From NCBI GenBank assembly GCA_944392225.1, contig CALXWB010000006.1:1-58748 (forward strand): 58,748 nt of DNA. Reading direction: 5' to 3'. Made by a program: the position numbers and the translations under genes. Source of the stretch: an uncultured Alphaproteobacteria bacterium. Lineage in GTDB: Bacteria > Pseudomonadota > Alphaproteobacteria > RF32 > CAG-239. Shown piece by piece: positions 79 to 51,696 of the stretch (position 1 is the stretch's first letter; each line of letters begins with the position of its first letter). Below the pieces are notes generated by a model. It was given only the letters and a program-made list of their open reading frames with translations. It searched no databases and was not told the origin of the DNA.

Positions 79-154
<76 letters not shown>

Positions 155-7766: not shown

Positions 7767-9164
7767 TCAGAACGGAAATTTTCCTCCAAATCCGCCGAAG
7801 TTTCCTCCAAACGGACCATTTTTCATTAACTGAGAAGCCAGCGGCGACTTCAACAATGAACCCATGCCGCCCAACTTACCCATCTTTTTCATCATGGTTG
7901 ACATTTGCTCATATGATTTGAGCAACTTGTTAACCTCGTGAACTTCAACTCCGGCACCCGAGGCAATTCTCTTTTTGCGAGATGCCTTGATTATGTCCGG
8001 ATTTTTTCTTTCGGCCTTGGTCATGGAAAGTATGATGGCTTCTTGCTTCTTGATTAAGCCATCAGATCCGGCTGCCTCAATTTGGCTTTTGAACTTGGAC
8101 AACCCCGGAATCATCCCGACGATTGAACCGATACTTCCCATATTTTGAATCTGGCGGAGCTGACCTAACATATCTTCCAAGTCAAACTTGCCTTTCATCA
8201 TTTTTTTTGCCATTTTTTCGGCTTCTTCGTGATCCACCTTTTCAATGGCTTTTTCAACCAAAGAGACAACGTCTCCCTGACCTAAGATTCGTCCGGCCAT
8301 ACGTTCCGGATGAAACTCTTCAATCTCGTCAATCTTTTCGCCCGTGCCCAAAAACTTAATCGGGACGCCGGCCACCATTTTCATGCTCAATGCGGCACCG
8401 GCTCTTGAGCTACCGTCCACTCTGGTCAAGACCAAACCGGTGATGCCGATTTGCTCGTTAAACTCTTTGGCCACGTTGCAGGCCTCTTGACCAATCATTG
8501 AATCGGCAACCAACAAAACCTCGGTCGGATTGGCGATTTTTTTAACCTCTTTAACCTCATCCATCAGCACTTGGTCAATTTGCAAACGGCCGGCCGTATC
8601 CAAGATGATGACATCATAGCCGCCTTTTTTGCCTTCGCTTAGCGCACGTTTGGTAATGGCTTCCGGCTTTTCGCCTTTAACAATCGGCAAACAAGCAACG
8701 CCGATTTTTTCTGCCAATTGCGCCAACTGCTCTTGCGCGGCCGGACGATAAATGTCCAAAGAGGCCAATAAAACTTTTTTCTTTCCCTTCAACTTGTTGG
8801 CAATTTTGGCAGATGTTGTGGTTTTGCCCGAACCTTGCAAGCCGACCATCAACACACAGACCGGCGGCACGGCTTTGAAATTGAGCTCACTGCCCTCTTC
8901 CGAACCCAAAAGTTTGACCAACTCGTCATGCACAATTTTGACAACCATTTGTCCCGGTTGAATGGATTTGACAACCTTTTCACCCAAAGCCTCAACCTTG
9001 ACCTTGGCAATAAAGTCTTTGACCACCGGCAAAGACACATCGGCCTCAAGCAAAGCAATGCGAATTTCGCGCATGGCTTCGTCAATGTCTTTTTCCGTCA
9101 ATACACCGCGTGATGTAATCTTGGAAAAAACCGAACCTAATTTATCTGTCAGAGCCTCAAAAAT
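7767..9164 (-). CDS. ffh: Signal recognition particle protein Ffh, apparent ATT start
   Basis: GLQGSGKTT, DTAGR, Met-rich M domain; frame extends upstream of the ORF-track start as ATT-FEALTDKLGSVFSKITSRGVL, matching the conserved Ffh N-terminus, with AAGGA 8 nt upstream. Confidence 0.95.
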   Translation of the reverse strand: MFEALTDKLGSVFSKITSRGVLTEKDIDEAMREIRIALLEADVSLPVVKDFIAKVKVEALGEKVVKSIQPGQMVVKIVHDELVKLLGSEEGSELNFKAVPPVCVLMVGLQGSGKTTTSAKIANKLKGKKKVLLASLDIYRPAAQEQLAQLAEKIGVACLPIVKGEKPEAITKRALSEGKKGGYDVIILDTAGRLQIDQVLMDEVKEVKKIANPTEVLLVADSMIGQEACNVAKEFNEQIGITGLVLTRVDGSSRAGAALSMKMVAGVPIKFLGTGEKIDEIEEFHPERMAGRILGQGDVVSLVEKAIEKVDHEEAEKMAKKMMKGKFDLEDMLGQLRQIQNMGSIGSIVGMIPGLSKFKSQIEAAGSDGLIKKQEAIILSMTKAERKNPDIIKASRKKRIASGAGVEVHEVNKLLKSYEQMSTMMKKMGKLGGMGSLLKSPLASQLMKNGPFGGNFGGFGGKFPF

Positions 9165-9177
9165 TGTCTTATTCCTT

Positions 9178-9381
9178 TCAGGCAGGGCCTGAGCCCCACA
9201 CCACTTTACCTCTTGCCCCGTGTACCGCGATGCTCTCGCGACACTACACGAAACAAATACCTACACGTTGTTGCACGCAGGCGACGGCCTGAGCGAACAC
9301 CCTCTCACCCTCTTGCTCCGTGGACCGCGTTGCTCTCACATCACTTCCGCGAAAACAAGTGCCTACATACTATTGCACGCC
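9178..9381 (-). repeat. Two diverged ~100-nt tandem repeats with shared hairpin potential in the ffh 5' region
   Basis: Cores at 9186-9278 and 9286-9380 share GCGTGCAA, TGTAGG, TTGTTT, GAGAGCA, CGCGGT, CACGG, GCAAGAGG, GCTCAGGCC (minus strand); about 70% identical by hand alignment. Confidence 0.85.
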
Positions 9382-9425
9382 AGTGTGCGAACCCTCGCTG
9401 ACTGGCGGCACTCCTTGGAGTGTTA
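9376..9425 (-). ncRNA. ffh leader RNA motif (alphaproteobacterial ffh motif)
   Basis: Minus strand CACTCC-AA-GGAGTG hairpin then CGCCAG-TCAGCGAGGGTTCGCACA-CTGGCG hairpin; resembles the known ffh motif as recalled and lies upstream of ffh. Confidence 0.65.
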
Positions 9426-9791
9426 AACGTTTCTCGTGCTTTTCACTTGGAAAAGTTGTTATGTTGCTGATTTTATAATTGGTTTTATTTTAAGAGTCAA
9501 GCTTAAAAATGCTTGTTTTTCAGACCGATTCTTTTTCTGCTTTTTCGATTCTTTTTTTATTTTAACCTCAATAATCGGTAAAATCTGTCATCTCATTGTT
9601 ATTTGTTGTTTTTTACAGAAAAAATAAAAATTCAACTTTTGTTTGGATTCGCCGGCAAAGTGTTAAACGAATCGTTAAAATTGTTACAAAAAATTTATCT
9701 TTTTTTACCGCTCAACCTATTGACTTATAATCATTTTGTCCTAGAATCTGCTCATAACGTGAATTCTTATAGTAATAATTAATTATATAAT

Positions 9792-9911
9792 ATGGAAGCA
9801 TTATTTTTTGATTTAACAGAGATCCTGGGGGGATTTTTGTTTGGTCTGGTTCTTTTAATTGGGGCCATTCAATTGTTTTGGTCGCCAAAAGAGGAACTGA
9901 AAGATTATTGA
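9792..9911 (+). CDS. Small single-TM protein, 39 aa (MEALFFDLTEILGGFLFGLVLLIGAIQLFWSPKEELKDY)
   Basis: ATG-to-TGA ORF in an otherwise empty intergenic region; ~20-aa hydrophobic stretch and charged tail; followed by a terminator; no strong SD. Confidence 0.55.
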   Translation: MEALFFDLTEILGGFLFGLVLLIGAIQLFWSPKEELKDY

Positions 9912-9925
9912 GAATGTTTGACACT

Positions 9926-9976
9926 AAAGCCTTGAATTTTGTACGTTTCAGCTGACGTATTTTATTCAGGGCTTTT
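9926..9976 (+). terminator. Intrinsic terminator after the small ORF
   Basis: AAAGCCTTGAAT...ATTCAGGGCTTTT extended hairpin with T tract. Confidence 0.6.
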
Positions 9977-9992
9977 GTTGTTTTAAAAGCGC

Positions 9993-10028
9993 AAAAAAAG
10001 AACCGAACTCATCATTCGGTTCTTTTTT
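9993..10028 (-). terminator. Intrinsic terminator after gltX
   Basis: AAAAAAAGAACCGAA-CTCATCA-TTCGGTTCTTTTTT. Confidence 0.8.
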
Positions 10029-10040
10029 ATTTACTCTAAT

Positions 10041-11468
10041 TTACAATCTTGCCAGGGCCTGATTGATACGATTTATCGTTTCTTCCTTACCCAAAATCAC
10101 GGCAATCTCGGTGGCACCGCCCGGCGTGGTTTCTTTGCCGGACAAGGCTATGCGTAACGGATACAAAATCTGTCCGTTTTTAACACCCAAAGTTTCAGCC
10201 AAAGCTTTCAGTTTTTCAAACAAAGCCTCATTGGTCCAAACATCAGCTTCTGCCAACACGGTTTTGGCTTCAGCTAAGGTCTTTTTGGCAACTTCAGCAT
10301 CACTCTTCATCTTTTTATTGAAATACAAATCATTAGAAAAATCTTTAACTTGCTCAATAAAATCTATCTGATTTGGAATATCGCCCAAAAACTCAACACG
10401 CGGCTGCAAAACCTTGCTCAAAAATTCTTCATCAATTTTTCTTGACAGACACTCTTTATAATAAGGTGCTGCTAATTTATGGAACTCTTCCAAGGGCAAA
10501 GCTCTGATGTAGCAACCGTTCATCCATGTGAGTTTGGTGATATCAAAAATGGCCGGAGATTTGTTCAATCTCTCCACGGAGAAGACTTTTTTCAACTCAT
10601 CAAGAGAGAAAATTTCTTGGTCGGTTCCAGGATTCCAGCCCAGCAAAGCAATATAGTTGATGATGGCTTCCGGCAGATAGCCTTTGGCGACCAAATCTTG
10701 GAAAGAGGCATCGCCGTTACGTTTGCTCAATTTATGCTGCGCATCTTTCATCACCGGCGGAACATGAACATATTGCGGGTGCTCCCAACCAAAATCTTCA
10801 TAAATCAGATTATATTTCGGGGTAGAAGAAATATATTCATTGCCTCTGACAACATGGGTGATTTCCATCAAATGGTCATCGACCACATTGGCAAAGTTAT
10901 AGGTCGGCAAACCGTCTGATTTGAGCAACACGCCTTCATCCAACTCATCATAATCAATTTCAATATCACCATAAACCTCATCATGATATTTGGATTTGCC
11001 GGTTTTGTTGATGGTTTGGCGAATGACATATGGCTCACCGGCTGCAACTCTTGCTTTGGCTTCTTCCAAGCTCAGATGTTTGCAAGGGTCTTGAAACTTG
11101 ATGTTTTGCTCTTCGTCTTTTTGTTCATCGGCATCTTCTTTAGAGCAGAAGCAATAGTGCGCACCGCCCAACTCAACCAATTTGTGCGCGTATTCGGCAT
11201 AGATGCTCTTTCTTTCCGATTGAATATACGGGCCGTATTTTCCGCCGATATCCGGGCCTTCATCCCAGTTCATGCCGACGCGTTTCAATGTGGCATAAAT
11301 GATATCGGTTGCACCTTCAACATAGCGTTTTTGGTCGGTATCTTCAATACGCAAAATAAAATCTCCGCCTTTTGCTTTGGCAATCAAATATTCATACAAA
11401 GCCGTGCGCAAATTGCCGATATGCATATAGCCCGTGGGACTTGGGGCAAAACGAGTTCTGGTTTTCAT
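10041..11468 (-). CDS. gltX: Glutamate-tRNA ligase
   Basis: RFAPSPTGYMHIGN (HIGH-type), LRIEDTD, KLSKR (KMSKS-type); start ATG 11468. Confidence 0.96.
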   Translation of the reverse strand: MKTRTRFAPSPTGYMHIGNLRTALYEYLIAKAKGGDFILRIEDTDQKRYVEGATDIIYATLKRVGMNWDEGPDIGGKYGPYIQSERKSIYAEYAHKLVELGGAHYCFCSKEDADEQKDEEQNIKFQDPCKHLSLEEAKARVAAGEPYVIRQTINKTGKSKYHDEVYGDIEIDYDELDEGVLLKSDGLPTYNFANVVDDHLMEITHVVRGNEYISSTPKYNLIYEDFGWEHPQYVHVPPVMKDAQHKLSKRNGDASFQDLVAKGYLPEAIINYIALLGWNPGTDQEIFSLDELKKVFSVERLNKSPAIFDITKLTWMNGCYIRALPLEEFHKLAAPYYKECLSRKIDEEFLSKVLQPRVEFLGDIPNQIDFIEQVKDFSNDLYFNKKMKSDAEVAKKTLAEAKTVLAEADVWTNEALFEKLKALAETLGVKNGQILYPLRIALSGKETTPGGATEIAVILGKEETINRINQALARL

Positions 11469-14861: not shown

Positions 14862-14892
14862 GGTTCAAATAACCTCTTTAAAAAAATTTATA

Positions 14893-15277
14893 TTCAGGCG
14901 GCCTATAAGCCGGGTTCTGTATTTTGTTCTACTTTGCAGCACAACAAAACGATAGCTATTCATCTGGGCAAGATGTCACCATCTTGCTCGTCGCGACCTA
15001 CCTCTGGAGTGGGTTGGAAACACCCCGCACAACTTTTTAATAAAAGCCCTCCTAACTTGGTCTTGCTTCAAATAGGGTTTACCTGGCCAAAACCGTTGCC
15101 GGCTTTGCGGTGAGCTCTTACCTCGCCTTTTCAACCTTACCGCGAACAAGCCGCGGCGGTAATTTTCTGTGGCACTTTCCCTTGGGTCGCCCCAGCCAGA
15201 CGTTATCTGGTATTTTGTTTCCATGAAGCCCGGACTTTCCTCGCCGGTTGCCCGACGCAGCTATCCGACCGCCTATT
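14893..15277 (-). ncRNA. rnpB: RNase P RNA
   Basis: Minus strand GAGGAAAGTCCGGGCT, AGTGCCACAGAAA, ACAGAACCCGGCTTA conserved segments; terminal P1 AGGCGGTC/GGCCGCCT; ends approximate. Confidence 0.95.
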
Positions 15278-26616: not shown

Positions 26617-26772
26617 GAGGGAAGCTGTCCGGTGCGTATTTCCGCAGATCTTCCGAGCCATCGTTTTTTTATAGGGAATCGTCCCTGAGCAGATCGTGGT
26701 CTGTTTATATGATGCCCACCTTGTGAGAAGCGGTTCGACAAGTTTGTTTCATACGGCTATGATGGCTCCCTC
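26617..26772 (+). ncRNA. ssrS: 6S RNA
   Basis: Closing stem GAGGGAAGCTGTC/GATGGCTCCCTC, internal GTCCCTG and ATGCCCACCT segments; canonical position after zapA. Confidence 0.85.

Positions 26773-51620: not shown

Positions 51621-51696
<76 letters not shown>

Follow-up and report, generated by a model that had tools for sequence, protein, structure and literature searches.

In a 58,748-nt stretch of DNA (contig CALXWB010000006.1; hereafter the window) from an uncultured Alphaproteobacteria bacterium, the 5′ leader of ffh, the gene for the signal recognition particle (SRP) protein, contains two contiguous homologous units between the ffh motif, an RNA element catalogued in Rfam as RF01793, and the ffh start codon. 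Coordinates below refer to this 58.7-kb window, in which the minus strand is the ffh sense strand; the units lie on that strand at 9378-9277 (unit A) and 9276-9179 (unit B). Homologs of the unit, here called modules, are present at the same site in a set of related ffh leaders, and their core is conserved above the neutral sequence that flanks it. The modules are an undescribed, clade-restricted extension of a known orphan ffh leader and not a new RNA class. On balance we favor the interpretation that the module is a selected element of the leader; the assignment of any particular binding factor carries much lower confidence.

The two units repeat with a period of 102 nt, and 69 of the 103 columns of their MAFFT alignment are invariant, which agrees with an initial annotation made from the sequence alone that described two contiguous, approximately 70% identical copies with a period of about 100 nt. 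Global alignment of unit A with unit B gave a score of 44, as compared with -8.1 ± 4.9 (maximum 11) for 1000 dinucleotide shuffles. Tandem Repeats Finder, applied to 8900-9900, did not report the 100-nt period, as expected for copies that are ∼70% identical and differ by indels. The GC content of the repeat region is 0.55-0.58 and that of the adjoining intergenic stretch 0.22-0.38, confirming the description of a GC-rich block within an AT-rich intergenic region. Four segments make up each unit: the 20-nt tail R, a bulged hairpin whose loop contains AGCA, a purine-rich linker, and a 5-bp GC hairpin (P3). Unit A begins with tail R1 (GUGCAAUAGUAUGUAGGCAC, 9359-9378), which has no second match in the window at up to 3 mismatches and whose 16-mer core is confined to ffh leaders (14 loci). 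It continues with hairpin A (9313-9358), in which helix P1 pairs 9358-9346 with 9324-9313 and helix P2 pairs 9341-9337 with 9329-9325 below the AGCA-bearing apical loop (9336-9330). The purine-rich linker A (GAGGGUGAGAGGGUGUUCGCU, 9292-9312), the 3′ part of which resembles the 3′ half of the ffh motif, and P3 (CAGGC CGUC GCCUG, 9278-9291), which is present in the minimum free energy (MFE) structure, complete the unit. Unit B begins with a degenerate second tail, R′ (GUGCAACAACGUGUAGGUAU, 9257-9276), followed by hairpin B (9213-9256; P1 9256-9245/9224-9213, P2 9241-9236/9230-9225), which contains a GUG bulge at 9244-9242 and the loop GAGCA at 9235-9231, then by linker B (9212-9192) and a second P3 (CAGGC CCU GCCUG, 9191-9179). 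The Shine-Dalgarno (SD) sequence AAGGA (9177-9173) directly follows. The hairpin strands, GAGAGCA apex, compensatory pair, and CAGGC-loop-GCCTG hairpins quoted in the initial annotation, the last of them abutting the AAGGA, are thus all present.

Related loci were collected by a genome scan with Ffh as the protein query, which yielded 80 loci (L001-L080), mostly from metagenome-assembled genomes of uncultured Alphaproteobacteria; 77 of these have upstream sequence. Ffh identity to the window is 98-99% for L001-L004, 70-83% for most of the others, and 50-59% for eight distant loci (L024, L072, L074-L080). In most species the conserved tail R comes after the motif and supplies the SD through its GUAGG, and the start codon lies immediately beyond the tail. 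In the 72 leaders in which the motif could be located (71 loci and the window), the distance from its 3′ end to the start codon varies from 19 to 213 nt, the window having the longest. A module is present at this site in 10 of the 77 related leaders (L001-L007, L011, L027, and L029). L002 and likewise L006 contain a single module; in L001, L003, L004, and L011 one module is followed by another tail and by the first bases of another hairpin; L005, L007, and L027 contain a diverged module; and L029 contains a more diverged one, along with the 3′ strand of the motif repeated exactly. All module-bearing loci fall inside one 33-row clade of a quick Ffh tree (IQ-TREE with SH-aLRT support). Four contigs are labeled Lachnospiraceae (L033), Eubacteriales (L056), [Ruminococcus] gnavus (L057), and Burkholderiaceae (L076), but their Ffh groups inside alphaproteobacterial clades and they carry the alphaproteobacterial ffh leader, so these labels are probably binning or labeling errors.

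The modules are specific to ffh leaders within the sequence searched. No further copy was detected in the window with blastn-short, no match was obtained among 72,556 plasmid records, and all 33 hits of the covariance model R1 in 1,262,648 bases (the window plus the 80 loci, at 5-21 kb per related genome) were in ffh leaders, with weaker hits being tail-only. Rfam 15 gave no match in the leader at gathering thresholds and none within 9178-9369 at E≤10. The placement of the repeats in the ffh 5′ leader between motif and ribosome-binding site, and the proposal that they represent undescribed RNA, are both supported, with homologs at the same site in related genomes and a promoter-like site and the motif (9422-9370) upstream.

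The module core outlasts neutral sequence. When the window is compared with L011, L006, or L027, identity at the fourfold-degenerate sites of ffh is 45-51%, and in the same comparisons both the 100 nt upstream of the -35 element and the leader from the predicted transcription start to the small hairpin preceding the motif align at the level of shuffled sequence (z -1.1 to 1.8). The module without its tail nevertheless aligns with z of 8.3-9.5 to L011, 4.0-4.4 to L006, and 4.7-5.8 to L027. Because it remains alignable where fourfold sites and non-coding flanks have been randomized, the module appears to be under selection. A value of 85% identity between unit A and L011, obtained by lenient global alignment, was set aside as inflated, given a shuffle background of ∼58% and the contribution of the invariant tail.

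Folding predictions support a structured RNA on the ffh sense strand. The whole 281-nt leader is more stable than 200 of 200 shuffles (z -3.2). Hairpin B folds at -21.2 kcal/mol (z -4.85, with 0 of 200 shuffles as stable), whereas its opposite strand reaches -12.4 kcal/mol; the corresponding hairpin of L011 gives -23.9 kcal/mol in the sense orientation versus -12.5 on the opposite strand. This strand specificity is due to G-U pairs. Canonical pairs fill 17 of the 17 model positions in hairpin B and 15 of 17 in hairpin A, and a G-C pair in one hairpin is compensated by U-A in the other (alignment columns 32/57). The hairpin is the MFE structure in both window units (WIN_A and WIN_B) and in L002, L004, and L011; in the linker/P3 segment of unit B (9179-9212), the MFE prefers an alternative hairpin, GUGGGGC/GCCCUGC. 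When the P1/P2 structure was named by hand and its pairs then counted in the seven window-type modules, 89.7% of cells were paired, as compared with 36-59% in slid controls, and 4 of 500 column shuffles reached this value. Several P1 pairs in L011 and L006 are swapped on both sides (U-A to A-U and U-A to C-G) upon direct reading.

Elements of the hairpin region are also retained in the diverged modules. The L005 group and L029 keep the sequence block around the AGCA loop followed by CGGGGCA, and AGCA within the P2 loop is invariant in all 11 modules. CAGG is present in 7 of the 11, being missing from L005, L007, L027, and L029. The CAGGC/GCCUG stem of P3 is likewise found in L001, L003, L004, and L011, and other 5-bp stems occupy the P3 position in L005/L007/L027 (CACCC/GGGUG) and L029 (CCAGC/GCUGG). 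MAFFT misaligned the P3 hairpins of the L005 group, so the comparison between groups was read directly and was not counted; the three differing stems are compatible with a conserved structure.

Several results weigh against a selected, structured element. Hairpin A (-13.9 kcal/mol, z -1.08, 28 of 200 shuffles as stable) is not above shuffled sequence, unlike hairpin B, which qualifies the long hairpin that the initial annotation assigned to each copy. The 5′ strand of P1 is missing from the L005/L007/L027 and L029 modules, whose folds are no better than shuffles (88, 163, 93, and 122 of 200 equal for L005, L007, L027, and L029, respectively). Covariation, which had been put forward as a check on the structure, does not exceed shuffles in the seven window-type modules, where both-sided changes occur at 2 of 17 pairs, a low count because MAFFT sets L011 and L006 out of register. 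Over all 11 modules, a sample of about five independent lineages, the score of 0.140 is reached by 230 of 500 shuffles, whose value is 0.139, and 3 of 17 pairs are changed on both sides. RNAalifold on the 11-module MAFFT alignment returned 8 trivial pairs, again because the alignment loses register in L011, L006, and the L005 group. The pairs are therefore compatible with the hairpin and suggestive of covariation that does not reach significance. Sister taxa without a module are found beside L027 (L022), L006 (L040), and L029 (L064, L061, and L073), and these losses imply that the module is dispensable. Unrelated structured inserts with predicted helices of their own occupy the same site in L030-L032 (93 nt) and in L033, L034, L037, and L038 (∼100 nt). 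Finally, the similarity of modules between species could in part reflect recombination instead of selection, and the few kilobases searched per related genome limit the power to detect unlinked copies.

The site between motif and start resembles a hot spot for leader expansion. In L078, from a distant alphaproteobacterium, an independent tandem at 9925-9988 joins the 3′ strand of the motif and its tail into a 24-nt repeat unit, present in 2.7 copies with 97% matches; its sister L079 has one copy.

The two units of the window have diverged unequally. Tail R1 shows 0 of 20 differences to L002, L003, L004, and L011 and 1 of 20 to L006, whereas R′ of unit B differs at 5-6 of 20 positions from this otherwise almost invariant tail. 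Hairpin B differs at 3/45 positions from L004, 6/46 from L002, and 8/45 from L003, whereas hairpin A differs at 9-12 of 46 positions from the hairpins of WIN_B, L002, L003, and L004. The linker and P3 of unit A show 2/36 differences to L003 and 4/36 to L004; those of unit B show 16/36 to L003 or L004 and 9/34 to L002. For comparison, 21% of ffh fourfold sites differ between the window and L002-L004. The copies are thus complementary: the intact tail and the linker/P3 segment have been kept in unit A and the orthologous hairpin in unit B. Complementary divergence indicates a redundant, partly decaying duplication rather than a cooperative tandem device, and retention of one good copy of each part while the redundant copies drift is the pattern expected after duplication of a functional element. 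The tandem cis-regulatory RNA envisaged by the initial annotation is therefore retained with respect to its leader location and folding on the sense strand only, but not with respect to the pair acting as a unit.

A rival explanation is a neutral history, in which slippage or unequal recombination would readily affect the leader just 3′ of the ffh motif, and the modules would be duplication products tolerated there as functionless debris. Copy number varies among loci whose Ffh is 98-99% identical (two modules in the window, a single one in L002, and a single one with an additional fragment in L001, L003, and L004), sister taxa can lack the module, the 24-nt tandem in L078 arose independently, and hairpin A, tail R′, and linker B are decaying. 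Against it, the module core remains alignable (z 4.0-9.5) across lineages in which fourfold sites and flanks are randomized, hairpin B differs from the L004 hairpin at 3 of 45 positions when 21% of fourfold sites have changed, and hairpin B keeps 17 of 17 canonical pairs despite 8 stem differences from hairpin A. We regard this neutral explanation as rather unlikely.

The origin of the module can be read from its parts. Behind the tail, CAC-UUGUUU mirrors the CAC-AUGUUUGA of the short leader in L069, where the tail runs into the ffh start, and its counterpart in L005, CAC-AUGAUUUUU, likewise mirrors the tail-plus-start of short leaders. Within the 3′ part of the module, GAGGGUGUUCGCUCA mirrors GAGGGUUCGCACA of the 3′ half of the motif, and the 3′ strand of the motif is repeated exactly in L029. 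The simplest history is apparently a tandem duplication of a segment comprising the 3′ half of the motif, the tail, and the start of ffh. This duplicated segment would later have been built into the long hairpin in one clade of uncultured Alphaproteobacteria, and in the genome studied here the module itself was duplicated to give the tandem pair.

The upstream part of the leader is consistent with transcription of the modules together with ffh. A putative sigma-70-type promoter (9472-9500, minus strand) comprises TTGACT at 9500-9495, a 17-nt spacer, and TATAAA at 9477-9472, which would place the transcription start near 9465. Of the 71 related leaders with at least 400 nt of sequence, 55 have a match to TTGACN-N16-18-TANAWN at 49-81 nt ahead of the motif core. 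A consensus promoter scanner did not list TTGACT-17-TATAAA, as its rule demands T at the last -10 position; it also found no minus-strand promoter-like sites within the repeats. The Rfam ffh motif follows at 9370-9422, with the bulged hairpin proper at 9406-9379; cmscan matched the full model (positions 1-52) at 9422-9370 with 34.2 bits (E 2e-4), which is 0.8 short of the gathering score of 35, and L003 and L004 score the same as the window. The motif hairpin covaries across 37 leaders, with both-sided changes at 4 of 10 pairs. Just upstream of it, the small 5′ hairpin CACUCCAAGGAGUG (9409-9422) is paired in the MFE structure of the leader and is also predicted by RNAalifold from the 37 leaders, with both-sided changes at 1 of 4 pairs; it occupies a part of the Rfam model annotated as unpaired. 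A further hairpin upstream (9439-9455, minus strand, CUUUUC...GAAAAG) was sighted by eye only.

The motif itself is found in nearly all leaders examined, whereas the modules are optional and belong to one sub-clade. L036 has no recognizable ffh motif and instead has a short run of AAAATCC-like repeats ahead of its TTG start. The modules resemble the motif in sharing leader, gene, and strand, in having a bulged hairpin core, and in presumed cis-regulation of ffh; like the motif they directly precede the gene on its own strand (9378-9179, with the ffh start at 9164). Moreover, the module begins with the tail that follows the motif, and toward its 3′ end it is similar to the 3′ half of the motif. 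They differ in that the 52-position model covers only 9422-9370 and leaves ∼200 nt of modules unmatched, and the repeats are not members of the ffh motif family because the model does not match them. In the available text of Meyer et al. (2009; PMC2704228), the ffh motif is described as widespread in Alphaproteobacteria and of unknown function; a literature text search found no functional study of it after that description. An "ffH leader RNA" is listed among the expressed small RNAs in the available text of a Bartonella RNA-seq study (PMC7717549).

The ffh coding sequence (7767-9164, minus strand) specifies 465 amino acids with the Pfam domains SRP54_N, SRP54, and SRP_SPB. Its ribosome-binding site (9162-9177) is formed by the AAGGA SD at 9177-9173, an 8-nt spacer, and an ATT start codon at 9164-9162. 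From the upstream stop to 9101, the ffh frame contains neither ATG nor GTG nor TTG. The N-terminus (M)FEALTDKL matches the register of the ATG, GTG, or TTG starts of relatives, and Pfam SRP54_N begins at residue 5; the start was assigned to ATT 9164-9162 because only then does the N-terminus align with relatives. An ATT start of ffh was also assigned in 9 related loci (L001-L004, L006, L008, L009, L011, and L040), and the homologous codon in the remaining relatives is ATG, GTG, or TTG. ATT starts are rare and non-canonical and usually imply weak, regulated initiation, a parallel being control through the AUU start codon of infC. As in infC, the ffh ATT would provide weak, factor-sensitive initiation that a structured leader could modulate; unlike in infC, nothing observed links the modules to start-codon discrimination, and L008, L009, and L040 have ATT without a module.

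On the minus strand, the gene order is recN, gltX, a 600-bp AT-rich spacer, ffh, rpsP, and rimM. rpsP (7696-7316, Pfam Ribosomal_S16) lies 3′ of ffh on the same strand and is followed by rimM (7274-6714, Pfam RimM domains). The 600-bp spacer between gltX and the ffh promoter (9500-10040) has a GC content of 0.22-0.38 and contains a strong terminator-like hairpin of 14 pairs (9994-10028), two plus-strand promoter-like sites (9704-9747), and a 70-codon minus-strand open reading frame (ORF; 9712-9924) without a Pfam match. Elsewhere in the window, Rfam matches include class A RNase P RNA (14890-15276, minus strand), 6S RNA (26619-26772, plus strand), and two tRNAs with identical Rfam scores at opposite ends of the window (82-154, minus strand; 51621-51693, plus strand).

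In the favored interpretation the module would act in cis. Transcription would begin at the conserved promoter ahead of the ffh motif, so that the modules would be part of the leader of ffh-rpsP-rimM and would form an additional structured domain of the ffh leader that is probably recognized by a protein. Together with the ffh motif, they would set the level of translation from the weak ATT start. For instance, the duplicated pseudo-start (UUG UUU) might be buried in P1, with repeated units of GC hairpin plus tail being kept.

A more ambitious proposal is that the ffh motif is the 5′ part of a larger modular operator, in which the GC hairpin plus 20-nt tail is recognized by a trans-acting factor (Ffh or another product of ffh-rpsP-rimM), the AGCA hairpin is a second, clade-specific recognition domain, and copy number tunes the amount of SRP protein. 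Changes in copy number would then have occurred independently at least twice, in this clade and in the 24-nt tandem of L078. Leaders of ribosomal protein genes offer a comparison: they are autoregulatory, in some cases with two operator sites, and control genes for RNA-binding proteins. The ffh leader is likewise structured, adjoins the ribosome-binding site, and has repeated operator-like units, and its operon includes the genes for S16 and RimM. Here, however, the units are recent duplicates and not two distinct mimic sites, and no resemblance to SRP RNA was found. We consider the modular operator an unlikely, speculative reading.

Translational autoregulation through SRP RNA mimicry, in which free Ffh would bind the AGCA and CAGG words and repress its own synthesis, was raised as a speculative option by the initial annotation. 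The invariance of AGCA in the P2 loop of 11 of 11 modules and the fact that the controlled gene encodes an RNA-binding protein are in its favor. However, the two words occur in the SRP RNA domain-IV hairpin in the opposite order to that in the modules, where AGCA is part of an apical loop and CAGG belongs to another hairpin's stem, so that they do not face each other across an internal loop, and CAGG is missing altogether from L005, L007, L027, and L029. None of the 24 Rfam matches at E≤10 in 8900-10100 is to SRP RNA, a search in which a whole-RNA model may miss a partial mimic. Autoregulation had earlier been suggested for the ffh motif itself, although the motif is reported to be unlike the Ffh-binding helix, helix 8 of 4.5S RNA, in the available text of Meyer et al. 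(PMC2704228). The resemblance suggested for the modules thus finds no support, and we judge this mechanism improbable.

Still less probable is a device in which a terminator-like hairpin, formed by the 3′ strand of P3 plus the tail and followed by the U-rich strand of P1, competes with P3, or in which ribosomes starting at the tail SD and a UUG or AUG translate short upstream ORFs (uORFs) that control access to the ATT. A terminator scanner flags such a hairpin at 9282-9259 (the 3′ strand of P3 in unit A plus R′), with 9 pairs and the tail AUUUGUUUCG; AUUUGUUU follows this hairpin, and L011 has a 12-bp version followed by UUGUUUU. The hairpin at 9282-9259 is, however, weak (-8.9 kcal/mol), three of its pairs are G-U and its U-tract is interrupted, P3 is favored in the local MFE, and L005, L007, and L027 have neither U-tract nor junction hairpin. 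With respect to uORFs, an SD and AUG open ORFs of 17-19 codons inside the L005, L007, and L027 modules, but lengths and frames vary upon direct reading (5 codons in unit A, 16 in unit B, 8 in L011, and 29 in L004), and the three codon positions carry the differences among L005, L007, and L027 in a ratio of 3:4:5 (positions 1, 2, and 3), which gives no coding signature. A conserved leader peptide was rejected on the same variation in frame and length. Translation of the repeats in the ffh frame was also rejected, as that frame upstream of the ATT is closed by a UAG in tail R′ and lacks ATG, GTG, and TTG, and the leader lengths of relatives (162, 163, 138, and 213) are not spaced by multiples of three. 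On the plus strand, the ORFs 9213-9401 and 9220-9426 were not accepted as genes, having no Pfam match. Complementarities seen by eye in the window between loop and ORF and between linker and small hairpin were dropped because they are not kept in L006 or L011.

Two further suggestions of the initial annotation can be set aside as most improbable. Tandem small-molecule aptamers would agree with a tandem GC-rich folded RNA in a 5′ leader, and the glycine riboswitch, which consists of tandem aptamers, likewise has two homologous folded units in series in one leader; but the unit here is a bulged hairpin plus a 5-bp hairpin with no multi-stem junction or multi-helix pocket, P1 is missing in L005/L007/L027/L029, the copies decay complementarily and are not kept as a pair, relatives carry one or none, ffh is neither a metabolic nor a transport gene from which a ligand could be deduced, and no riboswitch was matched in Rfam. 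Insertion of a miniature mobile element or a small dispersed repeat into the leader would agree with the patchy distribution of the module on the tree and with the direct repeats of 20-28 nt (tail plus CUUGUUUU) that flank it in L003, L004, and L011, and the module shares with REP/BIME, ERIC, and MITE-like elements, which are dispersed intergenic repeats, the character of an intergenic imperfect palindrome of ∼100 nt. However, all model hits were in ffh leaders, neither a further copy in the window nor an unlinked hit in 1.26 Mb nor a match in the plasmid records was found, and the flanking repeat is the conserved tail of the leader itself and not a target-site duplication of random sequence.

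This is a modest finding, an extension of a known orphan leader: the ffh leader of one clade carries a further conserved domain beyond the motif. The spacing of 19-213 nt between motif and start codon argues against a simple model that requires the motif to be placed right at the ribosome-binding site. Together with complementary decay of the two copies, the natural variants with zero, one, or two modules indicate that the constrained parts are the first tail, one hairpin, and one linker/P3 segment. If the modular operator were correct, the zero-, one-, and two-copy variants would provide a ready series for finding the ligand of this orphan leader.

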